A program made the translations under genes and the position numbers. A model generated the notes under the pieces. It saw only the letters and a list, made by a program, of their open reading frames with translations. It had not been told where the DNA came from and searched no databases. From contig JAGLXN010000017.1 in NCBI GenBank assembly GCA_023132875.1, forward strand, positions 22,142 to 86,141: a stretch of 64,000 nucleotides of DNA, given 5' to 3'. Below, one piece after another: positions 6,146 through 63,556 of this stretch (positions are counted from its first letter, which is position 1; every line of letters starts with the position of its first letter). Source of the DNA: Candidatus Parcubacteria bacterium. GTDB lineage: Bacteria > Patescibacteriota > Minisyncoccia > JAHIHE01 > JAGLIN01.

Positions 6146-6151
6146 TTTTTT

Positions 6152-6601
6152 ATGTCTCAAACTAAAATTACAAATACAAAGCAGATATCGTACAACAAAA
6201 TTAAAGTGATGACATTTGGAACTTTTGACATTTTTCATCCGGGACATGAAAGTTTTTTGAAGCAAGCGAGAAAGTTTGGAGATTATTTGATTGTTGTTAT
6301 TGCCAGAGATAAAACAGTTGGAATAGTCAAGAAAAGATTTTCACAAAATAATGAAATTAATAGGCAGCGGGCTGTAGTAAAAAGCAATTTAGCAGATAAG
6401 GTAATTCTTGGAAGCTTGAAAGATAAATATCAAGTGATTAAAAAATATCAGCCGGAAATTATTTGTCTGGGTTATGATCAAACAGTATTTATAGAAAATT
6501 TACGGGAGAAGTTAAAAGAGTTTGGCATGGAAAAAACCAAGATTGTAAAATTAAAGCCTTATTGTTCAGAGAAATATAAATCGTCTAAATTGAGAGATTA
6601 A
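6152..6601 (+). CDS. Cytidylyltransferase-like HxGH nucleotidyltransferase (RibL-type FMN adenylyltransferase-like; NMNAT-like not excluded)
   Basis: GTFDIFHPGH motif; the true start is probably at Met 6209 (MTFGTFD). Confidence 0.55.
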   Translation: MSQTKITNTKQISYNKIKVMTFGTFDIFHPGHESFLKQARKFGDYLIVVIARDKTVGIVKKRFSQNNEINRQRAVVKSNLADKVILGSLKDKYQVIKKYQPEIICLGYDQTVFIENLREKLKEFGMEKTKIVKLKPYCSEKYKSSKLRD

Positions 6602-6611
6602 ATTTTTTAAT

Positions 6612-6657
6612 AGCACGTAGACGAGCACTGACTAAAAATGCAAATAAACACAGATAT
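6612..6657. repeat. Repeat family E copy (AACACTGA / AACACAGA 8-mer units) 12 bp after the stop
   Basis: GACGAGCACTGACTAAAAATGCAAATAAACACAGATA; related copies at 8026 and 16757. Confidence 0.5.
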
Positions 6658-6760
6658 TATTACTAACTTAATGGTATTCTAGAAATGATTTACACTGACG
6701 AAATTAAAACAATGCAACCGATTGTTTTAAATGGTGATTTAACAAAAATTAACTAAAATT

Positions 6761-9317: not shown

Positions 9318-10898
9318 ATGTCAATTATTTTAATTACAATATTAATATTATTTCTCATCAAAATTGTCCGTGATAGCTTGTTTTGTGTTTGGCTTTGGCA
9401 GGTGAAAGAATATCGGATAGATCGGATGAAATCTTATTTGAGAGACGAGAAAAGTATTATTTATAAAAATATTAATTATTTATTTGTTTTGATTTTATTT
9501 TTTATTTGCATTTTGGTTCCACAGCCATTCGGGACTATGGAACTAATGATTCTTATTTATTTAACGCTTTTATTTTTTACTTTTACTTTTTACCAAATTT
9601 TAATAGAAATAAAAGATAGAATTTTAAAAAGACCAAAGTTGACTTTTAAGATAATTCTAATATTTTTCATAGAAGCCACCTTTTATTTTTCGTTCTTTGT
9701 ATTTTACTGGATTCCCGCATTCGCGGGAATGACAAGACCTGCGGTCTTGATCCTACTATTACTATTTATTTATCTCATCACTCCTTTTTTAATTGCTACA
9801 ATTATTTTGTTAACAAATCCATTTTTTAATTTCCAAAAAAGAATAATAAAAAAAAAAGCCACCGAAAAAATGAAGGGATTGAAAAAAGTAAAAGTTATCG
9901 GTATTACGGGCAGTTACGGAAAGACAAGCACGAAAGAATTTCTATATGCGATATTGAACCAGAAATATAAAGTTGTAAAAACAGAAGGGAATAATAATAC
10001 GAATATCGGCGTGGCTTATACTGTTTTAAATAAAGTGAGTGATAAATATGATTATTTTATCTGTGAAATGGGCGCTTATAAAATTGGCGAAATCGCAGAA
10101 ATTTGTAAAATAGTAAAACCGGAAGTTGGAATTTTAACAGGAATTAACGAACAGCATATTGATTTATTTGGGTCTATTGAGAATACGGTTAAAGCGAAGT
10201 TTGAATTGATTGAGGCGTTGCCAGAGAACGGATTGGCGGTAATAAATGAAAAATTAAAAAATCAAAATGGAAAATTACAATTTAAAATTAAAAATGTTAA
10301 ATATTTTTCTTTGAACAATGTAAATGATATTAAAGTTTGTCAGGATTATGTAGGGTTTAATTATAAGAACTATAAATTTAAAACTAATCTTCTTGGCAAG
10401 CATTATATAGAAAATATTTTATCTGCTATAATGATAGCAGAATGTTTGGGAATAAGTTTGGATGAAATTGCAAAAGCAGTAGAGAAAATAAAACCGACTG
10501 AATTTATGATAAGAAAATTATACGGTCCAAATAATTCTATTTTTATTGATGACAGTTATAGCGCAAATCCTGATGGCGTAATCGCGGCGCTTGATTATTT
10601 AGATGAAGCGTATCAAGATTATAAAAAAATAATTGTTTTTCCAGGGATAATTGAATTGGGAAACAAGTCAAAAGAAGTGCATCAAAAATTATTTAGTAAA
10701 ATAGATAAAATTTGCGACTTTGCTTATATACTGAATACAGAATACAGAATACAGAATACTAATAACAAATTTGTTTTTGAGAAGGATTTTAATAAAGTGG
10801 CGAGAATGCTGAAAAATAATCTCAACGAAAAATCTGTTGTTCTTTTTGAAAGCCGGGGAGCGGGAGTGGCGATGGGAAAAGTAAAAATAGAAAAATAA
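9318..10898 (+). CDS. MurF-like Mur ligase with an N-terminal polytopic membrane domain of about 190 aa
   Basis: Mur ligase P-loop GITGSYGKTSTKE and C-terminal DDSYSANP signature; the N-terminus is strongly hydrophobic. Confidence 0.7.
   Translation: MSIILITILILFLIKIVRDSLFCVWLWQVKEYRIDRMKSYLRDEKSIIYKNINYLFVLILFFICILVPQPFGTMELMILIYLTLLFFTFTFYQILIEIKDRILKRPKLTFKIILIFFIEATFYFSFFVFYWIPAFAGMTRPAVLILLLLFIYLITPFLIATIILLTNPFFNFQKRIIKKKATEKMKGLKKVKVIGITGSYGKTSTKEFLYAILNQKYKVVKTEGNNNTNIGVAYTVLNKVSDKYDYFICEMGAYKIGEIAEICKIVKPEVGILTGINEQHIDLFGSIENTVKAKFELIEALPENGLAVINEKLKNQNGKLQFKIKNVKYFSLNNVNDIKVCQDYVGFNYKNYKFKTNLLGKHYIENILSAIMIAECLGISLDEIAKAVEKIKPTEFMIRKLYGPNNSIFIDDSYSANPDGVIAALDYLDEAYQDYKKIIVFPGIIELGNKSKEVHQKLFSKIDKICDFAYILNTEYRIQNTNNKFVFEKDFNKVARMLKNNLNEKSVVLFESRGAGVAMGKVKIEK
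9709..9753. repeat. Repeat family B hairpin (GGATTCCCGC-ATTC-GCGGGAATGAC plus AGACC-TGCG-GGTCT) inserted in-frame in the murF-like ORF
   Basis: Palindrome read directly; translates to IPAFAGMTRPAV. Confidence 0.6.
10733..10760 (+). repeat. In-frame heptamer tandem array (GAATACA x3, GAATACT) in the murF-like ORF
   Basis: Seen directly. Confidence 0.7.
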
Positions 10899-10933
10899 AA
10901 AAAGAAGTGTAGCTTATTATTTAAACTAAACTT

Positions 10934-11164
10934 CTAATATCCCGAACTTTCAACGCAGCACGAATTATTTAATGGAAAACCTTTTATTTCAGATTCTATT
11001 CTTGAGACCCCATCTTTTGAAAATTCAAACTTTAATTTACATTTTGGACATTTTGGATTTTCACCATTTATTTTGAAGTTTTCGTCTCTTTCAAAATAAG
11101 GTTTTTCTTTTCCTTCTGTATCAATGTGCTGATAGCAATAAGGACATACTATTATCATTTTCAT
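10934..11164 (-). CDS. Small zinc-ribbon protein (CPYC...CPKC)
   Basis: Two CxxC pairs, 76 aa. Confidence 0.5.
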   Translation of the reverse strand: MKMIIVCPYCYQHIDTEGKEKPYFERDENFKINGENPKCPKCKLKFEFSKDGVSRIESEIKGFPLNNSCCVESSGY

Positions 11165-11205
11165 TCAATCTCCTATTATCTTTAATTTAATATATAATAT
11201 ACACT

Positions 11206-12471
11206 ATGTCAATATTCAAAAAATTCCAACCAATCGCATCTGCACTTGCGCCGAATTATACTGTTTGGGATCTTTTAATTTGTGATAAATATCTATTATT
11301 GCCTTGGAATTGGGGGAAACTGCAAGAAGGAAAAAATACCAGAAAACTGGAAAGAAAATTTTGCGAATATATGGATTCAAGGTGGGCAATTAGTTTTGAT
11401 AGCGGACGAAGCGGTTTATATACGATTTTGAAGTGTCTTGAAATTAAAGATTACGATGAAATAATACTACAAGCATTTACAACAGTGGCTCTCCCAAATG
11501 TTATAATGTGGTGCGGAGCAAAACCGGTTTATGTTGATATAGATGAAAAAACTTATAATATAGATCCAGATAAAATCGAAGAAAAAATTACAGATAAAAC
11601 AAGAGTGATTATTGTTCAGCATACATTTGGTAATCCAGTAGAAATGGACAGGATTATGAAAATTGCCAGAAATCATAATTTATATGTCATTGAAGATTGC
11701 GCGCATTCTTTGGGAGGGAAATATAAAAACAAAAAAACAGGGACAATAGGAGATATAGCTTTCTTTAGTTTTGGAAGAGATAAAATTATTTCTTCTGTTT
11801 CAGGAGGAATGGTTATAACGGCAAATCAAGAACTTGGGGGAAAAATAAAAGAATTTAGAGATCAAATGCCATATCCTAAAAAATCTTTAATAGTAAGACA
11901 GCTCTTGCATCCTATAATAACTTTTAAGGCTTTAAAATTATATTATTTTTTCAATATTGGAAAAATCATAATGTATTTATCCAGTAAATTTGAAATTATA
12001 ACAAAAGCTTATAGCAAAGAAGAAAAAATAAACCAAAAACCAGATAATTTTCCCGCAAAAATGCCAAACGCACTTGCCGGAATTGCACTACATCAGATGA
12101 AACTTATTAATAAATTTAATAGCCACAGAATAAAAATTGCAAATTTATATAAAGAAAAATTATCTGATAATATAAACATAAGTTTAACAAAATCAACCCC
12201 CGAATCAAAAAATATATTTTTATGGTATACTATCTTAGTTGAAAATAAAAAAGAACTTATTAAAAAAGCTCGAAAAAAACATATAATTTTAGGCAGTTGG
12301 TTTCCGCAGGCAGTTGGACCGATTGAAGTTGATGTTGAAAAATCTGGCTATAAAAAAGGCAGCTGTCCAATTGCGGAAAAGATAAGCTTGAAGTGCGTCA
12401 ATTTACCGACACATCATAATATAGACAATAAAGATGTTGAGAAGATGGTAAAAGTGATAAATGATTATTAA
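11206..12471 (+). CDS. DegT/DnrJ/EryC1/StrS-family PLP-dependent sugar aminotransferase
   Basis: DCAHSLGG...FSFGRDKIISSVSGGMV pattern. Confidence 0.7.
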   Translation: MSIFKKFQPIASALAPNYTVWDLLICDKYLLLPWNWGKLQEGKNTRKLERKFCEYMDSRWAISFDSGRSGLYTILKCLEIKDYDEIILQAFTTVALPNVIMWCGAKPVYVDIDEKTYNIDPDKIEEKITDKTRVIIVQHTFGNPVEMDRIMKIARNHNLYVIEDCAHSLGGKYKNKKTGTIGDIAFFSFGRDKIISSVSGGMVITANQELGGKIKEFRDQMPYPKKSLIVRQLLHPIITFKALKLYYFFNIGKIIMYLSSKFEIITKAYSKEEKINQKPDNFPAKMPNALAGIALHQMKLINKFNSHRIKIANLYKEKLSDNINISLTKSTPESKNIFLWYTILVENKKELIKKARKKHIILGSWFPQAVGPIEVDVEKSGYKKGSCPIAEKISLKCVNLPTHHNIDNKDVEKMVKVINDY

Positions 12472-13523: not shown

Positions 13524-13566
13524 GAATCAGGAATCAGGAATCAGGAATTATGAATTAGGAATTAAG
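13524..13566. repeat. GAAT-core heptamer array (GAATCAG x3, GAATTAT, GAATTAG, GAATTAA) right after the FemAB-like stop
   Basis: Seen directly. Confidence 0.7.
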
Positions 13567-13629
13567 AACTTTCTATTTTTATAAAAATGCTTAGATGTTT
13601 ATTAGAAATGTTTATTGTAATAGATAAAA

Positions 13630-13656
13630 GATTCTGAAACAAGTTTAGAATGACAA
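13630..13656. repeat. Repeat family B hairpin GATTCTGAAACAAGTTTAGAATGACAA
   Basis: Same hairpin as at 61007 and inverted at 60857. Confidence 0.6.
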
Positions 13657-13720
13657 AATTTGTAATTTTTAAAATAAATTCCATAGTTTCATATAACATA
13701 CAATCCATAATTCATGATTC

Positions 13721-14752
13721 ATGATCCGTAATTTCAAGTTTAGAAGAAAAAGAATAAAACCATGGCAGCGAAAACCAAGGATTTTTGCGAGTCACAAACC
13801 TATTTTTTTTAAAAAAAATAAAAGCGGTTCTGCTAAAAATCTTAAAAGGGGATTATTGATAGCGTTTGTTTTTTTTGTCGCGTATTTTATTTTTTTCTCG
13901 GAGTTTTTTATAATTAAAAAAATAGATATAAATGGAAACAAAACCATTTCCAATAAAAACATAGAAAAAATCATAAAAAATGAAAACTCAAATCCGATTT
14001 TAGCAATTTTTCCTGGAAATAATTTTTTTCTTACTAACGAGGAAAAAATAGAAAAAAAACTGCTTAGCGAGTTTTCAGAGATCAAAACAATAACAATTAA
14101 AAAAAAGCTTCCAGATACTATAAAAGCGGAGATTGTAGAAAAAAATCCTCTTATTCTTTGGTGCAGAACTGAAAGCTGTTATTATCTTGACACTGAAGGA
14201 ATAGCTTTTATGGCTGAAAGCAGTGATACAGAAGCATATAAAGACAAAAAATTTATAAAAATTATAGAAGAGGTAAAAATTAAAGAAGAGATAGAAGATG
14301 AATTAGAAAGAGAGAAAGAAGAAAAGGAAACTAAGCCAGTGTTTTTAGATAATATTCAAAATACAATTGATTCTGAAATTTCTGATAATCCAGAGCATGA
14401 TGAAAGAGAAAATGATAAAAAAAATGAAGACAAAAATATCATACTAGAACCAATAAAAATAAATGATAAGATCGCGAATGAAGATTTTATAAATTTTGTT
14501 TTTAAATTAGATAATAGCATTAAAAGCGACACTGATATAAAAATTAAATATTATAAGACAAAGGGAGTAAAAACAAGAGAGATAATCGCGTATTCAGATA
14601 AAAACATAAGAATTTATTTTAATACTGCAGATGACGCGAAATTACAAACAACATATCTAAAAGATTTTATGTCTAAAGGAATTGGTAAAAATGAAATAAA
14701 TACATTAGAATATATATACCTTAAATCTGGAAATAAGATTTTTTATAAATAA
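13721..14752 (+). CDS. ftsQ: FtsQ/DivIB-like cell division protein (TM + POTRA) with an acidic insertion
   Basis: TM segment followed by a POTRA-like pattern I.INGN...LPDTIKAEIVEKNPLILWC. Confidence 0.55.
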   Translation: MIRNFKFRRKRIKPWQRKPRIFASHKPIFFKKNKSGSAKNLKRGLLIAFVFFVAYFIFFSEFFIIKKIDINGNKTISNKNIEKIIKNENSNPILAIFPGNNFFLTNEEKIEKKLLSEFSEIKTITIKKKLPDTIKAEIVEKNPLILWCRTESCYYLDTEGIAFMAESSDTEAYKDKKFIKIIEEVKIKEEIEDELEREKEEKETKPVFLDNIQNTIDSEISDNPEHDERENDKKNEDKNIILEPIKINDKIANEDFINFVFKLDNSIKSDTDIKIKYYKTKGVKTREIIAYSDKNIRIYFNTADDAKLQTTYLKDFMSKGIGKNEINTLEYIYLKSGNKIFYK

Positions 14753-16360
14753 TTGAAATTTAAAATAATTAAAATGAAAAAAATACGAACAAGATTTGCG
14801 CCAAGCCCGACGGGATATCTTCATGTTGGAAGTTTAAGAACTGCGTTATATAATTATCTGTTTGCCAAACATAATAACGGCGATTTTATCCTGCGTATTG
14901 AAGATACGGATAAAGCAAGGTTTGTGGAGGGTTCTATTGAAAATTTAGTGAAAATATTGGACCTAATCGAGCTGAAATATAATGAAGGTGTATTTGTAGA
15001 TAATGACGGAAAAATCTCTCAAAAAGGCAATTTTGGGCCATATATACAATCTGAAAGGCTAGAAATATATAAAAAATATGTTGACAAGCTAATAAAAAAT
15101 GATTATGCATATTTTTGCTTCTGTAGTCAAGAACGGCTGGAAGAAATGAGAAAAGAACAGCAAGCGCAAAAAATGGCTCCTAAGTATGACGGAAAGTGCA
15201 GGGGACTGGATAAAAAAGAAATTCAAAGGCTTCTCGATAAAAAAACTCCCTATGTTGTTCGTCTAAAAACTCCGCAGGAAGGATTTACCGAATTTGATGA
15301 TCTAGTTTATGGAAAAATAAAAATTGAAAACAAGGTAATTGATGATCAAGTTTTGATGAAGTCCGATGGATTTCCAACATATCATTTGGCAAATGTCATT
15401 GATGATCATTTAATGGAAATTTCACATGTCATTCGGGGAGAGGAATGGCTTCCATCAACTCCAAAGCATGTTATTTTATATAAAGCGTTTGGGTGGGATA
15501 TGCCAGAGTTTGCTCATCTACCACTTCTTCTTAATCCCGATAAAAGCAAATTGAGTAAACGTCAGGGCGATGTCGCAGTAGAAAATTATCTAAAAAAAGG
15601 ATATTTACCAGAAGCATTGTTAAACTTTATATTATTACTTGGTTGGAATCCTAAAACTGAAGAAGAAATTTTTTCATTTGATGAAATGATAAAAAGATTT
15701 GATTTGTCTGGAGTTAATAAAACGGGAGCTATTTTCAGTGTAGAAAAACTGGATTGGATAAATGGAACGTATATTCGTTGTATGCCGCTTGAAGAACTTA
15801 CCGAACTTTGTGTTCCATATTTGATTGAGGCAGGATTGATAGAAAGAATTATGAATTATGAATTAAGAATAAAGAATAAAATTCAAAATTCAAAATTCTC
15901 CTCCCGAGGCGGATCAGCCTTGGGCTGGAAGATTCAAAATTCTGATAAGGAAGTAGATTTTGATTATTTAAAAAAAGTTATTGCGCTTGAACAGGAACGG
16001 ATGAAGAAATTGAGTGAGATAGGGGAGCTGGTAAAATTTATCTTTGTTGATAAATTAGATTATGATAAAGATTTACTGGTATGGAAAAAAATGAGCTTTG
16101 AAGAGGTAAAAAATAATTTAGAATTAGCTTATGATGAATTAGAAAAAATAGACGAGAAAGATTTTGTGAAAAATAATTTGGAAGAAGTTTTGAGAAATTT
16201 AATGGGACGAGAGGGGATTAAGACGGGAGAATTGTTATGGCCCTTGCGAGTAGCTTTGACTGGCCTGAAAGGATCACCAGGACCGTTTGAAGTGGCAAGC
16301 GTTTTGGGAAAGGGAAAAGCTTTAAAGAGGATCAGAAAGGTAATTGAATTATTGAGATAA
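14753..16360 (+). CDS. gltX: Glutamyl-tRNA synthetase
   Basis: HIGH (PSPTGYLHVGS) and KMSKS-like (KLSKR) motifs; contains an in-frame repeat insertion. Confidence 0.9.
   Translation: MKFKIIKMKKIRTRFAPSPTGYLHVGSLRTALYNYLFAKHNNGDFILRIEDTDKARFVEGSIENLVKILDLIELKYNEGVFVDNDGKISQKGNFGPYIQSERLEIYKKYVDKLIKNDYAYFCFCSQERLEEMRKEQQAQKMAPKYDGKCRGLDKKEIQRLLDKKTPYVVRLKTPQEGFTEFDDLVYGKIKIENKVIDDQVLMKSDGFPTYHLANVIDDHLMEISHVIRGEEWLPSTPKHVILYKAFGWDMPEFAHLPLLLNPDKSKLSKRQGDVAVENYLKKGYLPEALLNFILLLGWNPKTEEEIFSFDEMIKRFDLSGVNKTGAIFSVEKLDWINGTYIRCMPLEELTELCVPYLIEAGLIERIMNYELRIKNKIQNSKFSSRGGSALGWKIQNSDKEVDFDYLKKVIALEQERMKKLSEIGELVKFIFVDKLDYDKDLLVWKKMSFEEVKNNLELAYDELEKIDEKDFVKNNLEEVLRNLMGREGIKTGELLWPLRVALTGLKGSPGPFEVASVLGKGKALKRIRKVIELLR
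15846..15948. mobile_element. Repeat family A element (GAAT heptamers plus GC-rich core CCTCCCGAGGCGGATCAGCCTTGGGCTGG) inserted in-frame in gltX
   Basis: Core matches the copies at 36568, 50467 and 63030; encodes MNYELRIKNKIQNSKFSSRGGSALGWKIQNS. Confidence 0.65.
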
Positions 16361-33309: not shown

Positions 33310-33428
33310 TTTGTTTTTTAAAAATAATAGCCCGAAATAAATTCAGGCCGTCAACAAAATATCAATTATTAAAACTCTTAAAAAATAAAATTCTCATATT
33401 ATTATATTTATATCCTTGTTTTATATTT

Positions 33429-33472
33429 AACAATATAGCAATGGAACAATACAACAATTTAAATTACAATTC
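33429..33472. repeat. Repeat family C (ACAATACAACAAT motif cluster)
   Basis: AACAATATAGCAATGGAACAATACAACAATTTAAATTACAATTC. Confidence 0.5.
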
Positions 33473-34738: not shown

Positions 34739-34744
34739 AGAATT

Positions 34745-34847
34745 ATATTGTTAAATTGTTGTATTGTTAAATTGTTGTATTGTTTTGCCTATTGCTTATT
34801 CAACGATTTAATCCAACAATACAGCAATGTAACAATATAACAATAAT
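34745..34847. repeat. Repeat family C, large palindromic copy (ATTGTTGTATTGTT x2 ... AACAATACAGCAATGTAACAATATAACAAT) upstream of secY
   Basis: Seen directly. Confidence 0.6.
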
Positions 34848-34853
34848 TTTTAT

Positions 34854-36545: not shown

Positions 36546-36615
36546 TTTTGTCATTGAAAATTGATTGCCGGTCCAAGGCTGGTCCGCCTCGGGCGGAAAA
36601 ATTAGAAATTGAAAA
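36546..36615. mobile_element. Repeat family A copy (TTTTGTCATTGAAAATTGATTG-CCGGTCCAAGGCTGGTCCGCCTCGGGCGG-AAAAATTAGAAATT) in the rplR-rplF spacer
   Basis: Near-identical over about 70 nt to the copy at 50443..50512. Confidence 0.65.
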
Positions 36616-37601: not shown

Positions 37602-37607
37602 ATTTTT

Positions 37608-37705
37608 GAATATTGAATTATGAATTTAGAATTACGAATTACGAATTACGAATCGACGATATTTTACAATCTTCATGATTCATAATTCATAATTCATAAT
37701 TCATC
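37608..37705. repeat. GAAT-core heptamer arrays in inverted orientation (GAATTAC x3 ... ATAATTC x3) in the rpsH-rpsN spacer
   Basis: Seen directly. Confidence 0.7.
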
Positions 37706-37706
37706 T

Positions 37707-38936: not shown

Positions 38937-39308
38937 CTATAGCACTTCCGGAGCTAGGGAAACTATTTTCATAAAGCCTTCATTTCTTAATTCCCTTGCA
39001 ACGGGTCCAAAAACACGAGTAGCTTTCGGAGTTATTTTATCTTTATCAACAATAACAACAGCGTTATCATCAAAGCGTATATAGGAACCGTCTTTTCTTC
39101 TAAATTTTTTCTTCTGTCTAACAATCACCGCTTTAGCAACTTCACCTTTTTTAACTTGTCCTCTTGGTTCAGCCGCTTTTATCGAAACTACAATGACATC
39201 GCCAATATAAGCATATCTTCTTCTCGTTCCGCCAAGAACCTTGATACACTTTACTAACTTTGCTCCTGAATTGTCTGCGACTGCAAGTTTGCTTCCTTGT
39301 TGAATCAT
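38937..39308 (-). CDS. rplN: 50S ribosomal protein L14
   Basis: [18 protein letters not shown]-terminus. Confidence 0.9.
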
Positions 39309-39379
39309 AAATATTAATTATTTTTATTGTTTATTTTCAAGAAATATATTTCTAAACCAACTTTATGAACTTTACAACT

Positions 39380-39643
39380 TTATGAACTTTTTACTTCTTT
39401 CGCTATCCACTTCTTTTCCTTGCTTATCGGCTTGATTTCAATAATTTTAACCTTATCTCCAATTTTAAATTTATTCTCTGCATCATGCGCTTTGTATTTC
39501 TTGCTTACTTTATATTTCTTTCTGTATATTGGATGCATTTTTAACCTATCAACCTTAACTACAACCGTCTTATCCATCTTGTCGCTTATAACAACTCCGA
39601 TCTTCCCTTTTGTATTATTTTTTTCCTTATTGTCTTTATTCAT
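39380..39643 (-). CDS. rpsQ: 30S ribosomal protein S17
   Basis: OB-fold S17 sequence. Confidence 0.85.
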
Positions 39644-39656
39644 ATATTTAACTATA

Positions 39657-39857
39657 TTATTTTTTGTTATTTACTCTCTTTTCCTTTAAAACAGTTTTTA
39701 CCCTTGCAATAATTTTTTTTGTCTTTTTTATTTCACTATAATCTTTCAATTGCCTATTCGCAAGAGAAAACCTAAAACCTTTAAGCTTCTCTTTACTATC
39801 TTTTACAAGAATTTGCAATTGTTTTTCTGATTGTTCTCTTAATTCTTTAGCTTTCAT
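39657..39857 (-). CDS. rpmC: 50S ribosomal protein L29
   Basis: 66-aa helical protein in the conserved position between rplP and rpsQ. Confidence 0.8.
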
Positions 39858-39885
39858 TTTTACCTTGAATTATGAAATTATAATC

Positions 39886-39975
39886 TTAGTTTACTTAGTG
39901 TAAATATTAGTTTTTTTGTGTTTAATATAGAAAACACGAAAGAAACTAATGTTCACACGAAAGAAACTAATTTTG
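39886..39975. repeat. Repeat family D palindrome (TTAGTGTAAATATTAGTTT ... ACACGAAAGAAACTAATGTTCACAC) in the rpmC-rplP spacer
   Basis: Copies also at 43437 and 44832. Confidence 0.6.
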
Positions 39976-39984
39976 AAAAATTAT

Positions 39985-40395
39985 TTATTGCTCCTTGGAA
40001 ATAAATTTTGTTTTTATGGGAAGTTTATGGCTAGCTCTTCTCATCGCTTCTTTTGCCACTTTCTCTTCAACTCCATCCATTTCAAAAATTATTTTTCCCG
40101 GTTTTACCACTGCCGCAAAATGATCTAAACTTCCCTTTCCACTACCCATGGGAACTTCTGCCGGTTTTCTGGTAATTGGCTTGTTTGGAAAAATTCTTAT
40201 CCATATTTTTCCGCCTCTTTGAACATATTTTGTCATTGCTCTTCTTGCCGCTTCAATCTGACGGCTCGTAATCCAAGAAGTTTCAAGTGATTTCAAAGCA
40301 AAAGATCCAAAAGAAATACTGGCTCCTCTATGCGCTTTTCCTCGCATTCTGCCTTTTTGTTGTTTTCTGTGTTTTACTTTTTTCGGCATTAACAT
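39985..40395 (-). CDS. rplP: 50S ribosomal protein L16
   Basis: [17 protein letters not shown]-terminus. Confidence 0.9.
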
Positions 40396-40421
40396 AAAAT
40401 CATTTTAACATATAAACATAA

Positions 40422-41075
40422 CTATACACTACGATTTTTTTCTTCAAATACTTCACCCTTATATATCCAGACTTTTATGCCGATTGCGCCATAAGTAGTA
40501 CGAGCAGTATATTTCGCAAAATCAATGTCAGCTCTTATAGTCTGTAATGGAATCTTCCCGTCGCTCAACCATTCGGTTCTAGCCATCTCAGCTCCATTTA
40601 ACCTTCCAGCAACTGTGATTTTTATTCCTTGCGCTTGCTTATTTTGCATAGTTCTTTCCATTGCTTGCTTTAATACTCTTCTGAATGGAATTCTTTTTTC
40701 AATTTGTTCCGCGACTGCCTGCGCGACTAATTTAGAACTTAATTCGGAATTTCGAATTTCAATTATATTTACTTTCACTTCTGTTTTTCCGTTTATTTTC
40801 TTGATTATTTCCGCTTTTAATTCTTCCGCGCCAGTACCGCCTCTGCCTATTACAATTCCGGGTCTTGCAGAATATACATTAACAACCACATTATTTGAGG
40901 ATCTTTCAATTATAATATCTTCTACTGCGGCTTTCTTTAATTTTTCCTCTAAAAAACTGCGCAATTCTATATCTTCACGCAAATACTCCCTGTAATTGCT
41001 GGAATTAAACCATCTTGATTTCCAGTCTTTTATTATACCTAATCTATGCAAAAATGGATTTATTTTTTTTCCCAT
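40422..41075 (-). CDS. rpsC: 30S ribosomal protein S3
   Basis: KH domain sequence GRGGTGAEELK. Confidence 0.9.
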   Translation of the reverse strand: MGKKINPFLHRLGIIKDWKSRWFNSSNYREYLREDIELRSFLEEKLKKAAVEDIIIERSSNNVVVNVYSARPGIVIGRGGTGAEELKAEIIKKINGKTEVKVNIIEIRNSELSSKLVAQAVAEQIEKRIPFRRVLKQAMERTMQNKQAQGIKITVAGRLNGAEMARTEWLSDGKIPLQTIRADIDFAKYTARTTYGAIGIKVWIYKGEVFEEKNRSV

Positions 41076-41084
41076 ATTTATAAT

Positions 41085-41573
41085 CTAATCTTTATTTATA
41101 TTATTTTTTCTTGCTGAAGATGTTTTAACTTTTTGGCTTTTGTCAGTTTTTATTTTTTCTTTTTTTTCTTCTTTAATTTTCCCAGTATCTACGTCTTGAA
41201 TAGCTGAATTCTTTTTCTTTTCTTCTTTGACTGTCTTATCTTTAAACTTATCTAAAATTATAGTGATATGGCTTGTTCTTTTGTTTATGCTGGATGCTCT
41301 TCCCATTGCCCTAGGTATCCATCTTTTTAATGTTGTTCCTTCATTTACAAATATCTTTGAAATATATAAATTATTCTCACTTAAATTAAAATTATGCTTT
41401 GCATTTGCAATCGCTGAATTTAATAGTTTTAAAATCGGTTGTGATGATTTTTTATTTATGAATTCTAATTGAATTTTAGCACTATTAATATCCATGCCTC
41501 TTATAACATCAGCAATTAATCTTACTTTTCTTGGTGAAATTCTTAGATTCCTTAAATGTGCTTGAACTTCCAT
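41085..41573 (-). CDS. rplV: 50S ribosomal protein L22 with K/E-rich C-terminal extension
   Basis: L22 core followed by a low-complexity tail. Confidence 0.85.
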   Translation of the reverse strand: MEVQAHLRNLRISPRKVRLIADVIRGMDINSAKIQLEFINKKSSQPILKLLNSAIANAKHNFNLSENNLYISKIFVNEGTTLKRWIPRAMGRASSINKRTSHITIILDKFKDKTVKEEKKKNSAIQDVDTGKIKEEKKEKIKTDKSQKVKTSSARKNNINKD

Positions 41574-41644
41574 ATATTAAAATTAAATATTTCTATATAA
41601 ATTTATAAAACATTATTATCTACAAAGTTAACTAATAACTCTAG

Positions 41645-41926
41645 CTACTTCTTTTCTAATTCTTTCTGCATTTTACCGCCGTGTTTGACAAATTTCTTCG
41701 TTGGAGAAAATTCACCGAGTTTGTGTCCAACCATATCTTCTGTCACAAAAACCTCTATGTGCTGTTTCCCATTATGAACTCCAAAAGTAAATCCCGCCAT
41801 CTCTGGAGAAATTACAGAGTTTCTTGCCCATGTCTTAATAACAGTCTTATCGCCTGTTTTTAAATTACTGATTTTTTTCATTAATTTCTCATCTATATAA
41901 GGGCCCTTTTTTAGTGATCTTGACAT
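41645..41926 (-). CDS. rpsS: 30S ribosomal protein S19
   Basis: [12 protein letters not shown]...HNGKQH. Confidence 0.9.
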
Positions 41927-41932
41927 ATCATT

Positions 41933-42052
41933 TTATTGTTATATTGTTCTATTGCTAAATTGTTATGCATGGCACATATTCACAATTATATTATTATATT
42001 ACAACTATTGAATTACTATGCATAACAATAGAACAATAGAGCAATACAACAA
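41933..42052. repeat. Repeat family C large palindrome (TTATTGTTATATTGTTCTATTGC ... GCATAACAATAGAACAATAGAGCAATACAACAA) between rpsS and rplB
   Basis: Seen directly. Confidence 0.6.
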
Positions 42053-42053
42053 T

Positions 42054-42884
42054 TTATTCTTCTTCTTTCCTTTTCTTAAAATTATTTATACGTTTATTTT
42101 TCTTTCTAGTCTTAAATCCAAGCGCGGGCTTTCCCCATGGAGTTTTTGGATGTTTGAGTCCAATAGGCTGTCTTCCTTCTCCTCCTCCATGAGGATGATC
42201 TACAGGGTTCATCGCGCTTCCCCTAACTTGAGGCCTTTTACCCATCCACCTTGATCTCCCAGCTTTTCCAATTACAATTTTATTATGGCTTATATTACTT
42301 ACCTGTCCAATAGTGGCAAAAGAATTTTCAGGAATTAATTTGACTTGCCCGGAAGACAAGCTTACATGAGCATAACCGCCTTCCATTGCTGTTAGTTTTG
42401 CATATGATCCAGCAGATCTTGCCAATTGACCACCTTTTCCTGGAAATAACTCGACATTGCTTATAATAGTCCCTGAGGGAATATTTTTAAGAGACATCCT
42501 ATTTCCAATTTTTATCGGAGCACTCTCAGAAGAAATTATTTTATCTTCTTTTTTCAATCCTTCTAAAGCAATAACATATCTTTTCTCTCCGTCAGCATAC
42601 GCAACTAAAGCAATAAATGCCGTCCTATTTGGATCATACTCAATAGCTTGAACTTTTGCCGGAATGTCAAATTTATTCATCTTGAAATCAATTATTCTAA
42701 ATCTTTTCTTTGCTCCGCCCCCTCTATGCCTAATTGTTATTTTTCCAGCACTTCCTCTGCCTACCTTTCTTGTTTTTTTCCCAAGCAAACTTTTTTCAGG
42801 ATCTTTTTTGTCTAATGTAGAAAAATCATAACTCATCATTCCTCTTCTACCCGGAGATGTTGGTTTGTATTTTTTTACTGCCAT
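42054..42884 (-). CDS. rplB: 50S ribosomal protein L2
   Basis: [16 protein letters not shown] motif. Confidence 0.9.
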
Positions 42885-42912
42885 ATTATTTAAAATTAAA
42901 TCAAAATTATAT

Positions 42913-43413
42913 TTATTTCGCTTCTTTCATTAGATCAATTGTATTCCCTTTGGCCAACTTAACCATTGCTTTTTTATATCCGCTTTTAACTCCTGGTTTT
43001 CCTTTAAATCTCTTAGGTTTAGATGGAACACTAATAACATTAACACTAATAACCGAAACTCCGTATAAACTTCCAATAACTTTTTTTATTTCCGACTTAT
43101 TAGCTTTGTCAGAAACAACAAAAACATACTGATTTTCATTAGAAAGATTGAAAGTTTTTTCAGAAATATGAGGCTTTTTTACTAAATCAAAATAATGATT
43201 TGGTATTTTATCTTTCGAAATCTTCTTGACTTTTATAATTTTTGCAGACGGTTTACTTTTTTTCTTATCTCCTATTTCTTTCTTGATCGTTTTTTCATCA
43301 ATCGCCTTTTTTTCTTTAGTATCTTTCTTTTCTTTAGTATCTTTCGAAATTACTGCGTCTTTCTTCTCGTCTTTATTATCTTTCTTTTTTATAATTTTAT
43401 TTAAAATACCCAT
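42913..43413 (-). CDS. rplW: 50S ribosomal protein L23 with long Lys-rich N-terminal extension
   Basis: C-terminal L23 core [18 protein letters not shown]. Confidence 0.8.
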
Positions 43414-43436
43414 AGTTTTAAGGTTATGCTATTTCA

Positions 43437-43520
43437 ATTTTAGTTTGTTTAGTGTAGATATTAGTTTTTTTAGTGTCTTCTTCATAAAACACGAAGGAAA
43501 CTAATATTCACACTAATTAA
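43437..43520. repeat. Repeat family D palindrome in the rplW-rplD spacer
   Basis: TTAGTGTAGATATTAGTTT ... AAACTAATATTCACACTAA. Confidence 0.6.
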
Positions 43521-43531
43521 ACGAAGCGCTT

Positions 43532-44164
43532 CTAAATTTTCTTATAAGTTTCTTCTATCTTCTTAATCCCCTCTTTATTGATAACCAAAAATTTATTTTT
43601 TAATAAGTCTGCTACATTCAAAGAATCACTGGCAATCATTGAAATATTAGGAATGTTTTTTACTGATTTAAATATACAATTATCCTTTTTATTTAAAGAT
43701 AGTAAAACCTTTCCATTTATCGGTAATTTTCCAAAAGCGCTACTCATTGATTTTGTTGAAACTTTATTCAATTTTGGATCATCTAAAATTATCAGCTCCT
43801 TATCTCTTACCTTTGAAGACAAAACCATGTAAAGAGCTTTTGTCTTCATTTTCTTGTTTATTTTCTTGCTATAATTTCTTTCTATAGTAGGACCAAAAGT
43901 AACTCCCCCGCCTTTCCAAATTGGAGACCTGGTTGAACCATGTCTTGCTCTTCCTGTTCCCTTTTGTTTCCATGGTTTTTTCCCTCCACCTCTAACTTCT
44001 CCCCTGTCTTTTGTGTCAGCTAAAACTTTTCTTGAATTTGAAATATGCGCTACATACGCCTGATGAATCAAGTCGTCTTTTACTTTCATTCCAAAAATTT
44101 CTTCCGGAAGCTCTACTTCTCCAGTTTCTTTTCCTTCTAGATTGTAAACCTTAATTTTTAGCAT
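43532..44164 (-). CDS. rplD: 50S ribosomal protein L4
   Basis: Conserved L4 sequence. Confidence 0.9.
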   Translation of the reverse strand: MLKIKVYNLEGKETGEVELPEEIFGMKVKDDLIHQAYVAHISNSRKVLADTKDRGEVRGGGKKPWKQKGTGRARHGSTRSPIWKGGGVTFGPTIERNYSKKINKKMKTKALYMVLSSKVRDKELIILDDPKLNKVSTKSMSSAFGKLPINGKVLLSLNKKDNCIFKSVKNIPNISMIASDSLNVADLLKNKFLVINKEGIKKIEETYKKI

Positions 44165-44187
44165 AATATTTATAAACTTACCTTTTT

Positions 44188-44805
44188 TTATCTAGTAACT
44201 ACTTTCATCAATCCGCCTATATTTCCTGGAACTGAACCTTTAATTAACAACAAATTTTTATCTTTGTCAATACTAACGATTTTAAGTCCAAGCTGAGTAA
44301 CCTGTTCTCCTCCCATTCTTCCGGCCATCTTTTTTCCTTTTATTACATGTTCAGGAAACGCGCTTCCGATAGATCCTCCTTTTCTATTACTGTGTTTTTG
44401 TCCATGTGATGCCGGTCCTCCTTTAAAACCATGTCTTTTCATAACGCCTTGAAATCCTTTTGCTTTTGAAACTCCAATCACTTTTACTTTATCTCCCGCT
44501 TCAAATATTGAAATATCTACCTTGTCTCCCAATTTATACTCCTTATCAGAATTCTCTGTTCTAAATTCTTTAATATATCTGAATTTACCTAAATCTTTCA
44601 AGTGTCCCATAAGAGGTTTATTAATCTTTTTCTTTTCCAAAAAACCAATCTGAACTCCTTCGTAACCGTCTTTTTCTTTCGTTATAATTTTTGTCACAAC
44701 ACAAGGACCTGCCTGCACTAAAGTAACAGGAATAACTTCCCTCTTCTTTTCATTGTCCATAAACACCTGGCTTATTCCTATTTTTTTTCCTAAAATAAAT
44801 TTCAT
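44188..44805 (-). CDS. rplC: 50S ribosomal protein L3
   Basis: Conserved L3 sequence. Confidence 0.9.
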
Positions 44806-44831
44806 AGTTTTTTAAATCGCAATTTTTTAAC

Positions 44832-44910
44832 TTTAGTTTTTTTAGTGTAAATATTAGCTTCTTCTGTGTTTTCTATAGAAGACACTAACAAAACTGATAT
44901 TTACACTAAA
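44832..44910. repeat. Repeat family D palindrome in the rpsJ-rplC spacer
   Basis: TTTAGTGTAAATATTAGC ... CTAACAAAACTGATATTTACACTAAAG. Confidence 0.6.
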
Positions 44911-45087
44911 GCAAACCAATCCAGATAGCAAAGTTTAATATAAACAACAAAAAAATCAGATAATTAAACCAATCTTAACCGTTATTATCCGATTTATAAA
45001 TTGGCTAATTCAGTATGCTTAAGACTATTATTTAACCGGAAATTTCTGACAAAGTCCAGCAATAAGCACTTAAACTAGCATATAAAC

Positions 45088-45178
45088 AAATTGTTATATT
45101 GTCAAGTTATTATGCATAGCATAATAACACGCAATGTTACCTGACAATATAACAATTTAGCAATTTGACAATTTAATA
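45088..45178. repeat. Repeat family C palindrome (TTGTTATATTGTCAAG ... CCTGACAATATAACAA) just downstream of rpsJ
   Basis: Seen directly. Confidence 0.55.
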
Positions 45179-45514
45179 TTACATCTTAATTTCTATAGAA
45201 ACTCCTGCTGGCAAATTCAAATTTGTCAGAGAGTCAATTATTTTAGGATTAAGATCAAAAATATCAACAAGTCTCTTGTGAACCCTCATTTCATACTGAT
45301 CTCTGGCATCTTTGTGAACAAATGTTGAACTATTTAACGTGAACTTGCTAATTTCAGTAGGTAAAGGAACCGGACCCCTAACAGAAGCCCCGCTTCTTAA
45401 GGCAGTTTCAACTATTTGCTTTGCTGACTGATCAATAACCTTATGATCATACGCTTTAATTTTTACTCGAATCTTCGGCTTTGATTCGCTTTCTTCATTA
45501 GTTTTTTCTGCCAT
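45179..45514 (-). CDS. rpsJ: 30S ribosomal protein S10
   Basis: Conserved S10 sequence. Confidence 0.9.
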
Positions 45515-45579
45515 TTCGGTTTAAATTGAACTTAATTATTATTTATCCTATTAATTGCTTATTATTAAAACATCTATAA

Positions 45580-45612
45580 AATAAAATAAGAAGATAAAAA
45601 TCTTCTTATTTT
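45580..45612 (-). terminator. Hairpin AATAAGAAGAT-aaaa-ATCTTCTTATT overlapping the tuf stop, followed by U-rich sequence (terminator/attenuator between tuf and rpsJ)
   Basis: Seen directly. Confidence 0.4.
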
Positions 45613-46805
45613 ATAATTTTAGTCACAACTCCTGCTCCAACAGTTCTTCCGCCTTCTCTGATCGCGAATCTCATCCCATCTTCCATGGCCACATTTGAAA
45701 TTAATTTAATAGTCAATTTTACAGTATCGCCTGGCATAACCATTTCTGTTCCTTCAGGTAAAACCACATCTCCTGTCACATCAGTTGTTCTTATGTAAAA
45801 TTGCGGTTTATATCCTGAGAAAAATGGAGTATGTCTTCCACCTTCTTCTTTTGTTAGAATATATACTTCGCTTTCAAACTCTGAATGAGGAGTAATTGAT
45901 CCGGTAGCAGCCAAAACCTGTCCCCTTTCAACCTCTTCTTTTTTAATGCCTCTAAGCAGAACGCCCGCATTGTCTCCAGCCTGACCTTTGTCCAGCTGTT
46001 TATTGAACATTTCAACTCCCGTCACAACTACCTTTTTTGTATCTTTAATTCCAACGAGTTCTACTTCTTCATTTACATTAACAACTCCTCTTTCAATCCT
46101 TCCGGTAACAACGGTTCCTCTTCCTTCAATTGAAAATATATCTTCAATAGGCATCAAAAACGGCTTTTCAATATCTCGTTTCGGTTCTGGAATCTTTTCA
46201 TCAAGAGCTTTAACAATTTCTAGAATAGGATTACATTTTTCGCATTCTGCTTTTCCACAAGAACATTCAAGGGCCTGAAGAGCGGATCCTCGGACAATAG
46301 CAGTATTTTCTCCGTCAAATTCATATTTTGTTAATAATTCTCTAATTTCTTCCTCAACAAGATCAATTAGTTCCGCGTCATCAACTTGATCAACTTTATT
46401 TATAAAAACAACAATTTCAGGAACGCCAACTTGTCTGGCAAGCAAAATATGCTCTCTTGTTTGAGGCATAGGACCATCAGTCGCGGCAACAACAAGAATA
46501 GCGCCGTCCATCTGAGCAGCGCCAGTAATCATGTTCTTGATATAATCAGCATGTCCCGGACAGTCCACATGAGCATAATGCCTTGTATCTGACTCATATT
46601 CCTGATGAGAAGTAGCAATCGTAATGCCTCTTTCTTTTTCTTCAGGTGCGCTATCAATTTCGCCAACACCTTTTTTTGAAGCGTTCTTACCAGACGCGGC
46701 CAAGCAAGCAAGCATAGCTGCTGTTAGAGTCGTTTTGCCATGATCAACATGACCAATTGTTCCTACATTAATATGTGGTTTTGATCTATCAAATACTTCT
46801 GCCAT
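45606..46805 (-). CDS. tuf: Elongation factor Tu, with a CxC-x4-C-x2-C insertion in domain I
   Basis: [10 protein letters not shown]-loop, [12 protein letters not shown]; unusual [11 protein letters not shown] segment. Confidence 0.9.
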
Positions 46806-47164
46806 TTTATAAGTCTCCTTTTAAAAACTAAGATTAGAAAGCTTATTACTCTTGAAACTTAGTTTATAAGATTAATTTTTAAAAATTAGATACTTTAAGT
46901 TAAATTTTAAACAACATATACATATTAGCACATACAAAAAATTTGGCAAGTGCTTAGGGCTTAAGTAAAAATAACTCATTCACTTCACATTCAAATTCAC
47001 ACCATCTAAACTTTTAAAAATTTTCAAAATAGCTTGCTATTCTTCAATTTTTTAAAAGCTTATCTATCGCAAATTTAAACGCGAATTAAACAACTTATTT
47101 TTACTTAAGTCCTTAGATTTATTATCTAAATTATAATACACATTATTAATACTTTTGTCAAATA

Positions 47165-47482
47165 TTATAGCTTCTCAACCACAATTTCATTATTTATTCC
47201 CTTTTTACTATTTTTTTCTTTAAAATCATCAAAATCATTTTTAATCTCAAACTGTTTTAACTTTCTTTCATTTTGTCTAGTTTTCCAAATTTCAACATCT
47301 TTATTTACCTTCTCTTCTACCTTTTTTCCGGGATTAGCAACGGCATGGTCAATCTTATCAAAATTAATATATTCATCAATATCTATAATCACAAAAACCG
47401 GCTCTCCGTCTTCAACTATAATAGCCTTTCCTCCAATGATCTTTATAAGCTTTTTTATTTTATCAAAACTGTTTTCAGTCAT
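47165..47482 (-). CDS. Hypothetical protein
   Basis: 105-aa ORF. Confidence 0.4.
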   Translation of the reverse strand: MTENSFDKIKKLIKIIGGKAIIVEDGEPVFVIIDIDEYINFDKIDHAVANPGKKVEEKVNKDVEIWKTRQNERKLKQFEIKNDFDDFKEKNSKKGINNEIVVEKL

Positions 47483-49811: not shown

Positions 49812-50037
49812 CTATTTTTTATTTTTTGAGACATTTAGAAGTATAGTGTCTTTCAATGCGACCGCATGGAAAAATGCTATATCTAATTTTTATTCATTTT
49901 CATTTCTAACAATCTTGATAAAGAAGGATATTTATAAATAACTTTTGTTTTTAAGTAAACTTTTTTCGTATCTTCAAATGTAAACTTTTGCGGTTTCATA
50001 ATTCATTATTCATTATTCTAAATTCAAGATTCAATCA

Positions 50038-50442: not shown

Positions 50443-50512
50443 TAGTCATTGGAAATTGATTGTCAACCCAAGGCTGATCCGCCTCGGGCGGAAAAATTAA
50501 AAATTTTATAAT
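50443..50512. mobile_element. Repeat family A copy (TTTAGTCATTGGAAATTGATTG-TCAACCCAAGGCTGATCCGCCTCGGGCGG-AAAAATTAAAAATT) downstream of the ATPase gene
   Basis: About 70-nt match to 36546..36615. Confidence 0.65.
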
Positions 50513-62692: not shown

Positions 62693-63532
62693 TTATTTTT
62701 TCAAAACCATCCACCCAAATTTTATCGTCGCGTTATAAATTCGTTTTATTCTTCGCGGATTCAAGATCAATCGCCACAGCCATTCCAATCCCAATTTTTG
62801 GAAAATCAATGGCGCGCGTTTGACTTCACCAGATATAAAATCAAACGATCCGCCGACTCCAATTGCCAGCTTTACGCTTGGCAATTTTTTTAAGTTCTCA
62901 TAAATCCATTCTTCCTGTTTAGGAACGCCAAACGCAACGAGTATTATATCTGGTTTTGTTCTATTTATCCGCTGAATTAATTCTTCATTTAACTTATGAA
63001 ACTTATTATTATAAGAATTTGGAATTTTTCCTCCCAAGGCGGACCAGCCTTTGGCTGGGAATTTGGAATTTTGAGATTTATTTGGTATTTGGTATTTGGT
63101 ATTTGGTATTTCAAACCACATTCCCTCCTCCGCGCCCACGATATTTAAACGATCATACTTTTTAGATAAAACTTTTGCGGCTTCTCCCGCTATCCCTTCT
63201 CCCGCTCCTAATAAATATATCTTTTTACCTTTTATAAGTTCAGATTCACAGATTTTATAAATTAAATTAATACCCGTAATTTTTTCGGGCAATGTTTTAT
63301 GATTTAAAAATTTGTTCGCAAATAAAATTCCTGTTCCATCCGGAATAATAATATCGGCTTCATTTATAATTTTTTTAAAGTGATTATTTTTTCGAGCTTC
63401 AACAACCATTTCTGGGTTTAGTGTTACAATATAATGTTGTTGATCCGATAATAAAAAACTCTTGATTTTTTCAAGAACTTCTTTTGTTGTAATCTTATTT
63501 ACTTTTACATCTAATATTTTTTCATAATTCAT
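62693..63532 (-). CDS. WecB/TagA/CpsF-family glycosyltransferase carrying an in-frame family A repeat insertion
   Basis: N-terminal WecB/TagA-like region IIIPDGTGI; insertion encodes EIPNTKYQIPNKSQNSKFPAKGWSALGGKIPNS. Confidence 0.65.
   Translation of the reverse strand: MNYEKILDVKVNKITTKEVLEKIKSFLLSDQQHYIVTLNPEMVVEARKNNHFKKIINEADIIIPDGTGILFANKFLNHKTLPEKITGINLIYKICESELIKGKKIYLLGAGEGIAGEAAKVLSKKYDRLNIVGAEEGMWFEIPNTKYQIPNKSQNSKFPAKGWSALGGKIPNSYNNKFHKLNEELIQRINRTKPDIILVAFGVPKQEEWIYENLKKLPSVKLAIGVGGSFDFISGEVKRAPLIFQKLGLEWLWRLILNPRRIKRIYNATIKFGWMVLKK
63015..63112. mobile_element. Repeat family A element (core CCTCCCAAGGCGGACCAGCCTTTGGCTGGG plus ATTTGGT x4 heptamers) in-frame inside the wecB-like gene
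   Basis: Core matches 15899, 36568 and 50467. Confidence 0.65.
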
Positions 63533-63556
63533 AATTTATTCTTTAAACCTAAGAAG

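Follow-up and report, generated by a model that had tools for sequence, protein, structure and literature searches.

The 64,000-nucleotide stretch of a Candidatus Parcubacteria bacterium analyzed here (contig JAGLXN010000017.1, positions 22,142 to 86,141; hereafter the window) carries three related palindromes of ~85 nt, which we call family D, in the rpmC-rplP, rplW-rplD, and rpsJ-rplC spacers of its S10 ribosomal-protein operon, as an earlier note on this DNA had pointed out. Family D is probably a small, noncoding, imperfectly palindromic repeat of the bacterial MITE (a miniature transposable element with inverted repeats) or REPIN-like kind, in a lineage of the Paceibacterota (Patescibacteria, or Candidate Phyla Radiation, CPR). 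The copies have the look of insertions specific to this lineage and not of a regulatory device under conservation: they are missing from the orthologous junctions of all but the closest relative compared, while the genes and neighboring spacers around them are conserved.

Anatomy of the family D palindromes

Copy 1 (39886-39970) is an 85-nt imperfect palindrome in the 127-nt spacer between rplP (39985-40395) and rpmC (39657-39857); copy 2 (43440-43525) is one of 86 nt in the 118-nt spacer between rplD (43532-44164) and rplW (42913-43413); and copy 3 (44833-44919) is one of 87 nt at the 3' end of the 373-nt spacer between rpsJ (45179-45514) and rplC (44188-44805). All three copies, as well as the six flanking genes (assigned by Pfam), are on the minus strand. 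When the 16-mer TTAGTGTAAATATTAG was searched with up to three mismatches, it matched six arms, all at the three copy sites; its matches in the whole window numbered 9, against 2.25 ± 1.5 in shuffled sequences, and none of 100 shuffles reached 9. A profile of the family D copies gave E = 1e-21 to 1e-26 at the three sites and no further convincing site, either in the window or in 9.5 kb beyond one side of it (L015). Our copy counts therefore refer to ~73 kb, or ~10% of the 831-kb metagenomic source scaffold (ENA ERZ23498665). On either strand, the predicted fold of every copy is much more stable than those of shuffled sequences (z = -4.4 to -6.0). Moreover, the same sequences recur in the independent assemblies L002, L003, and L017, and the copies are therefore not an assembly artefact. 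The inserts are not identical, as the earlier note had described them, since ungapped identity between copies is only 60-82% (60-79% in direct and 78-82% in inverted comparisons).

Each arm is built from two tandem 21-nt units of the form TTAGTTT-nn-TTAGTGT-n5, with a unit spacing of 21 nt within arms (39934/39955, 43440/43461, and 43489/43510); in copy 1, the units match at 39886 on the plus strand and at 39934 and 39955 on the minus strand. The heptamer TTAGTKT recurs every ~10 nt, eight times per element. The arms, which are 32-40 nt long, are 78-81% complementary, and each copy folds as a single hairpin of 27-35 pairs. The 5' arm is of a "G-type" (GTGTGAAYATTAGTTTC.TTCGTGT) and the 3' arm of an "A-type" in copies 1 and 2 and also in a copy from another genome, L012 (described below); the imperfections of the palindrome are inherited.

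The homology between copy 1 and the L012 copy runs ~20 nt past the palindrome (ATTATAATTTCATAATTCAA versus AATATAATTTCGTAATCCAA), which indicates that the element has a tail and hence a polarity. The copy 1 tail (39865-39885, minus strand; ATTATAATTTCATAATTCAAG on the mRNA strand) is nonpalindromic, is common to the L012 copy, and stops 7 nt short of the rpmC ATG. The copy 2 tail (43417-43439, minus strand) has diverged to ATTGAAATAGCATAACCTTAA and stops just short of the rplW ATG (43413), and the tail or flank of copy 3 (44806-44832, minus strand) runs to the rplC ATG, forming together with the 3' arm a hypervariable stretch (44806-44876). All three window tails face the downstream gene and stop a few nucleotides before its ATG, and it is because the tails fill this gap that each palindrome stops 24-28 nt before a start codon. 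The starts of copies 1 and 2, in turn, lie 14 and 6 nt after the preceding stop codon, so that both of these spacers are almost wholly made of the element. Only spurious antisense open reading frames (ORFs) overlap family D, and its size (a palindrome of 85-87 nt plus a tail of ~20 nt) and inverted repeats fit a bacterial MITE (less than ~500 bp, noncoding).

Family D at orthologous junctions of relatives

For comparison we took the S10 operon from each of eight related genomes, whose L3 protein identities range from 99% down to ~80%. By the profile, family D is present in the 99%-identical strain L003 and absent from the seven other relatives (within L004-L011), in which gene DNA identity to the window is 71-94%. 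The L16|L29 spacer, which holds copy 1 and measures 127 nt in the window, measures 29, 69, 69, 29, and 28 nt in relatives, where it is either nearly empty (28-29 nt in L004, L010, and L011) or occupied by a 69-nt hairpin of another family (L006 and L007). The L4|L23 spacer, which holds copy 2 and measures 118 nt in the window, measures 149, 82, 147, 47, 31, and 31 nt in relatives; it is either short (31-47 nt, with 31 nt in L010 and L011) or filled with 82-149 nt of unrelated sequence (L004, L006, and L007). Both the spacer lengths and the profile hence place family D among elements with presence/absence polymorphism at orthologous sites, a trait of MITEs.

The comparison with L004 locates this difference in the family D spacers themselves. 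Window and L004 genes have 84-94% DNA identity, and the spacers L23|L2, L2|S19, and L29|S17 have 85-93%, whereas identity drops to 50% at L4|L23 and to 20% at L16|L29. The earlier note had reasoned that the same spacers, if found in relatives with merely diverged sequences, would speak against mobility; instead, the long relative spacers at family D junctions are unrelated to those of the window (20-53% identity, at or below chance level), next to the well-conserved neighboring spacers. Because genes and other spacers are conserved and the family D spacers are not, insertion or replacement is indicated rather than gradual divergence. The copies inserted, or displaced older spacer sequence, after the split from relatives with ~90% identical genes. 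At rpsJ|rplC, family D makes up only ~110 of the 373 nt, and the spacer is 231-496 nt long in every relative that lacks family D, because a conserved structured core sits there (see below).

Larger insertions were also seen in one relative, L007 (GCA_034660995.1). Two ORFs, encoding an Amidase_6 protein and a 275-aa protein (10362-11943), are inserted between its rplC and rplD, and a methyltransferase and HinfI-like restriction gene pair (4312-6713) lies between its fusA-like gene and tuf, so the ribosomal-protein cluster of this clade tolerates gene-sized insertions too.

Divergence and turnover of the copies

The family D arms differ by at least 17% and whole copies by ~20-40% (ungapped), whereas the host differs by ~10% from L004, its nearest relative without them. 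Since copy divergence exceeds host divergence, the copies are not recent duplicates of one another and must have been drawn from an older, already diverse family. The proliferation of MITEs into the operon that the earlier note had suggested is thereby supported as far as insertion is concerned, by the empty or differently filled orthologous junctions and by the L012 copy at an unrelated locus, but the description of it as recent is not.

Turnover is visible between the closest strains. Apart from ~47 substitutions scattered over 5.7 kb (a background of ~0.8%), window and L003 show 18 ungapped differences clustered in 44806-44876, that is, in the 3' half of copy 3 and the flank up to the rplC ATG. 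Furthermore, the L2|S19 palindrome has been swapped outright, with 127 nt in the window versus 211 nt in L003. This clustered replacement looks like recombination with another copy or lineage. Inversion of the copy 3 center, of the kind reported for Correia elements, does not convert the window allele to the L003 allele (by eye).

We also looked at whether the structure itself is maintained. None of 34 consensus pairs showed a compensatory change (five copies; low power), and arm identity within a copy is 59-76%, versus up to 83% between copies. For the three window copies, the predicted fold of the antisense strand is as stable as that of the mRNA strand, or slightly more so. The bias of G.U pairs between strands, considered as a clue to the functional strand, gave small differences (3-4 kcal/mol) that were inconsistent between copies. 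In these five sequences, a sample of low power, we thus see no sign of structural selection beyond the ancestral palindrome.

A further copy outside the S10 operon

A pattern of the palindrome core was scanned in 185,579 GTDB species-representative genomes, in JGI metagenomes, and in IMG/VR. Among the GTDB representatives it found one true further copy, in a Paceibacterota metagenome-assembled genome (MAG; JAGLOZ010000053, L012 5950-6061), where it lies between a 176-aa gene and a prepilin-peptidase gene, outside any ribosomal-protein operon. This copy has four-motif arms as in the window, and its homology reaches into the tail: blastn of L012 5953-6061 against window 39971-39865 gave 75% identity over 109 nt (E = 1.7e-12). 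Its tail points away from the direction in which the flanking genes are transcribed. A two-tailed form of 135 nt can tentatively be drawn in L012, in which the outer 14 nt match at 11 of 14 positions as an inverted repeat and are unpaired in the minimum-energy fold.

Two other pattern matches, one in a Bacillota contig from GTDB (L013) and a G+C-rich one in a JGI metagenome (L014), were rejected as chance. The IMG/VR scan gave no family D match, a blastn search of copy 1 against phage and plasmid collections gave none either, and an L29 look-up returned the same strain group only. The L012 MAG also has the ATTGTT and GAATTAT repeat families of the window (see below); one GAATTAT unit is part of the copy 1 tail, and a similar run lies inside the L012 prepilin-peptidase ORF.

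Relation to known palindromic repeats

We file family D under small palindromic intergenic repeats in general and not in any named family. It is like the Correia/NEMIS elements of Neisseria (~100-150 bp, noncoding, with inverted-repeat arms, and co-transcribed) in its size, its placement upstream of start codons, its long predicted stem, and its promoter-like -35/-10 pair. Correia elements, however, number in the hundreds and have both a TA duplication and an IHF site, whereas family D has three copies in ~73 kb, all within one operon, shows no evident duplication, has arms made of 21-nt tandem units, and is known from sequence alone. Most Correia elements are found immediately upstream of genes; they contain sigma-70-like promoters, and RNase III cleaves them within transcripts at their terminal inverted repeats. 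ERIC elements alter mRNA levels (PMC10969869).

REPINs are inverted doublets of short palindromic units that form one long hairpin; they are intergenic, often lie inside operons, and make no target duplication (PMC3116915). Family D, too, consists of repeated units in an inverted pair, folded into one long hairpin and without evident duplication. On the other hand, REPs are built on a 20-40-nt unit, one end of which bears a conserved GTAG or CGTC tag, and are associated with a RAYT gene (PMC3733652), while the family D arms are composed of TTAGTTTnnTTAGTGT units without a conserved tag of either kind (GTAG is found only in copy 2, through a single substitution). In addition, the REP/REPIN-RAYT system differs from family D in that we found no Y1 transposase among the window ORFs scanned and in that the known copy number of family D is tiny. 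ERIC/IRU, RUP, and BOX are small palindromic intergenic repeats of enterobacteria or pneumococci that are transcribed with their neighbors and can change mRNA levels (PMC10969869, PMC3049150, PMC3184786). Family D is likewise small, palindromic, and intergenic but has no sequence similarity to them; those repeats are plentiful and shared between species, and family D is limited to one strain group and one copy in another MAG.

The early mRNA of phage T7 has intercistronic RNase III sites, which are long imperfect hairpins whose cleavage leaves a protective 3' stem. Family D may resemble these by analogy, and in its possible working only, as long imperfect hairpins that separate cistrons in a polycistronic mRNA. 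The T7 sites, however, are functional and conserved and do not form a repeat family, whereas family D is dispensable in relatives. Two other identities were considered and rejected. In an integron attC site, RYYYAAC stands at the 5' end and GTTRRRY at the 3' end; the order is reversed in family D, which reads TTAGTTT...AAACTAA on either strand. A parS site came into question because parAB genes are present in the window and the arms contain TGTTCACAC / GTGTGAACA, but these do not form a contiguous 16-bp palindrome.

Weighing the MITE/REPIN-like reading

If family D is an element of the MITE/REPIN-like kind, its copies would stem from an older, diverse family, either by transposition (as a nonautonomous element) or by recombination with other copies. 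Lying on the transcribed strand, they would be co-transcribed within the operon, and the transcript would fold into imperfect hairpins of 27-34 bp that end ~25 nt upstream of the next start codon. The likeliest consequence would be that RNase III, a double-strand-specific RNase, cleaves the transcript and/or that mRNA ends are protected, as described for Correia, ERIC, and REP elements. The predicted sense-strand stems have 34, 31, and 27 pairs with small internal loops, above the ~20-bp length that RNase III needs, and RNase III-type processing is plausible from these modeled stems. In the better-preserved copies, the TTTACA-16-TATAAT of the 3' arm and tail might also act as an internal promoter.

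Several observations weigh against this reading. Target-site duplication is not evident at the three window copies; a possible TTCAA at copy 1 and a possible 6-nt ATACTT on both flanks of the L012 copy could be chance matches in DNA of ~69% A+T. A transposase domain was not found in the 20 window ORFs scanned. The copy number is low, with all three copies of the ~73 kb in one 5-kb operon, and the GTDB, JGI metagenome, and IMG/VR pattern scans added only the single L012 copy. The probability that copies two and three would also land in the operon's 10 of ~72 spacers is p ~0.02; random dispersal therefore does not explain the clustering, which may reflect local spread, a preference or tolerance for a highly transcribed region, or selection. 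Finally, the proposed roles in transcription, cleavage, and promotion are predictions.

Should the MITE/REPIN-like reading be right, palindromic mobile repeats would colonize even the most conserved, highly expressed operon of an ultra-small CPR genome and would turn over between 99%-identical strains, a result that is mainly descriptive. Family D spacers also break assemblies and are possible strain markers. Were the hairpins to turn out to be sites of processing or promoters, the architecture of the CPR ribosomal-protein operon would be in the course of being rewired by mobile hairpin modules. In the literature on CPR/Patescibacteria with MITEs or with ribosomal-protein operon spacers, we found nothing relevant on such repeats.

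Alternative readings

The alternative that survives best, though we regard it as unlikely, is that the hairpins are selected intercistronic "punctuation", that is, processing or stability sites for RNase III or another RNase that cut the S10/spc transcript into units of different half-life; in relatives, other hairpin families would fill the role that family D has in this lineage. Such families do occur at the same or neighboring junctions in relatives, and the L2|S19 palindrome is 89% conserved across relatives, equal to the genes. Moreover, long hairpins (stem score of at least 19) are present in 9 of 22 spacers of at least 50 nt in the translation cluster at 28-47 kb, versus 2 of 20 elsewhere in the window. 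The predicted sense-strand stems would suffice for RNase III, and the uniform end of the three copies 24-28 nt before the next ATG leaves that ATG unpaired. However, family D is missing at the same junctions in relatives, where some spacers measure only 28-31 nt, and it is therefore dispensable. Against such a function stand also the absence of compensatory changes, the antisense fold that equals or slightly beats that of the mRNA strand in the three window copies, and the L012 copy, which sits at an unrelated locus with its tail facing away from the transcription of its neighbors.

A broader version, to which we give rather little credence, is that the ribosomal-protein super-operon is punctuated by interchangeable hairpin modules (family D and the ATTGTT, GAATTAT, and AAAGTT types), which would be processing and/or promoter cassettes swapped between strains by recombination. 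If this modular reading were true, family D would be one allele of a mobile post-transcriptional control of ribosomal-protein stoichiometry in reduced genomes, and not junk.

It is also improbable, slightly more so, that family D is mainly a portable promoter, in which internal promoters made of an outward TTTACA in the 3' arm and a TATAAT in the tail would divide the S10 operon into smaller transcription units (sub-operons). The promoter-like TTTACA-16-TATAAT of copy 1 (39877-39904, minus strand) lies upstream of rpmC, with its -35 hexamer in the 3' arm and its -10 hexamer in the tail; it matches the consensus at 11 of 12 positions and scores highest among the sigma-70-like sites in 39000-46000. 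L012 has identical hexamers at an equal distance, though the sequence between them differs at 6 of 16 positions, and the L003 allele of copy 3 reads TTTACA-16-TAGAAT. Promoters of this sort are documented for Correia elements and other MITEs (PMC10969869). Copies 2 and 3, by contrast, have poor hexamers (TCTACA-16-TGAAAT and TTTACA-16-TAAAAA, respectively), and promoter-like sites in the region are not above expectation (36, versus 28.3 ± 4.5 in shuffled sequence). The L012 site faces a convergent gene and a terminator-like hairpin and has no obvious target. In addition, the match was scored against a sigma-70-like consensus, which may not be that of this organism.

We consider it very unlikely that family D is a DNA-level protein-binding array, with eight TTAGTKT half-sites phased at ~10 bp in inverted arms that would bind a transposase, a nucleoid protein, or a regulator, much as Mu, Tn7, or Tn402-type transposons have several binding sites at their ends. 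Consistent with such an array, the TTAGTTTnnTTAGTGT unit recurs at 21-nt steps within arms and is the most conserved part of all five copies; the phasing could, however, merely reflect an origin by tandem duplication of the unit. No candidate binding protein or transposase was found nearby among the window ORFs scanned, no 5-bp duplication was seen, and the ends of family D are unlike the TG...CA ends typical of the Mu/Tn7/Tn402-type superfamily.

The attenuator hairpins proposed in the earlier note, or more generally a transcription attenuator, terminator, or ribosomal-protein autoregulatory site (L4/S10-leader-like), would agree with a stable hairpin inside a ribosomal-protein operon, but this reading is already largely refuted and has next to no probability left: (i) on the mRNA strand the stems are followed by ACUAAGAUUAUAAU, ACUAAAAUUGAAAU, and ACUAAAGUUAAAAA, none of them a U-tract, and a terminator scan was blank at the family D sites, while a genuine-looking terminator with a U7 tract sits, for contrast, 30 nt upstream of copy 3; (ii) family D is not conserved in relatives (L004-L011) and precedes three unrelated cistrons; and (iii) no Rfam leader family matches. 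Rfam gave only two tRNAs at gathering thresholds and, at E values up to 5 over 39600-45600, only sub-threshold microRNA-precursor models, which amount to generic A+T-rich hairpins.

Other hairpins, repeats, and genes of the region

The structured core of the rpsJ|rplC spacer (44940-45079, minus strand) is ~140 nt long and is kept in 7 of 7 related genomes examined. A long hairpin (GCTAGTTTAAGTGCTTA...TAAGCATACTGAATTAGC), in which compensatory changes are seen at three pairs, makes up its first part, and a terminator-like hairpin and its U6-8 tract come after it. It has no Rfam match and is a candidate ribosomal-protein leader or attenuator, or a candidate small RNA.

A second hairpin family, ATTGTT, has arms composed of runs of the 8-nt ATTGTTnn and of its complement, at 41927-42053, 33310-33463, 34739-34853, and 45070-45178. 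The copy at L2|S19 has 89% identity in both L004 and L007, loop included, and a different 211-nt sequence in L003; relatives have the entire rpsJ|rplC leader flanked by runs of ATTGTT and AACAAT. Tandem arrays of the 7-nt repeats GAATTAT / TTCATAA occur at 37602-37706, 13543-13727, 15844-15898, 49995-50034, and 63521-63539, some of them in inverted orientation, so that their arms make up a 74-nt hairpin upstream of rpsH. A G+C-rich motif of ~65 nt (TTTTTCCGCCCGAGGCGGAnCAGCCTTGG...CAATCAATTTyCAATGAC) is found twice on the minus strand, at ~36550-36601 and ~50455-50500; its sites belong to the spacer downstream of the L6 gene (36617-37165) and to a 722-nt spacer upstream of the fusA-like gene. 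The predicted hairpin with the highest stem score in the window (~158 nt) lies in the 359-nt spacer upstream of tuf (46806-47164), which by eye also contains the promoter-like pairs TTGACA-17-TATTAT and TTGCCA-16-TAATAT.

The window has a G+C content of 31%, and its nearest protein relatives carry the names Patescibacteria, Parcubacteria, or Paceibacterota. Its str/S10/spc cluster lies on the minus strand in the Pfam-confirmed order rpsJ, rplC, rplD, rplW, rplB, rpsS, rplV, rpsC, rplP, and rpmC, and the gene names that the earlier note had given for the S10 operon agree with this. The L23 protein (from rplW) is 166 aa long, with an N-terminal extension of ~75 aa that lies outside the Pfam domain; the region encoding this extension has 18-nt direct repeats (43288-43407), and L23 length varies from 136 to 187 aa among relatives. 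Between the fusA-like gene and tuf lies an ORF of 105 aa (47165-47482) without a Pfam match, whose position is kept in relatives with a length of 102-105 aa (118 aa in L011).

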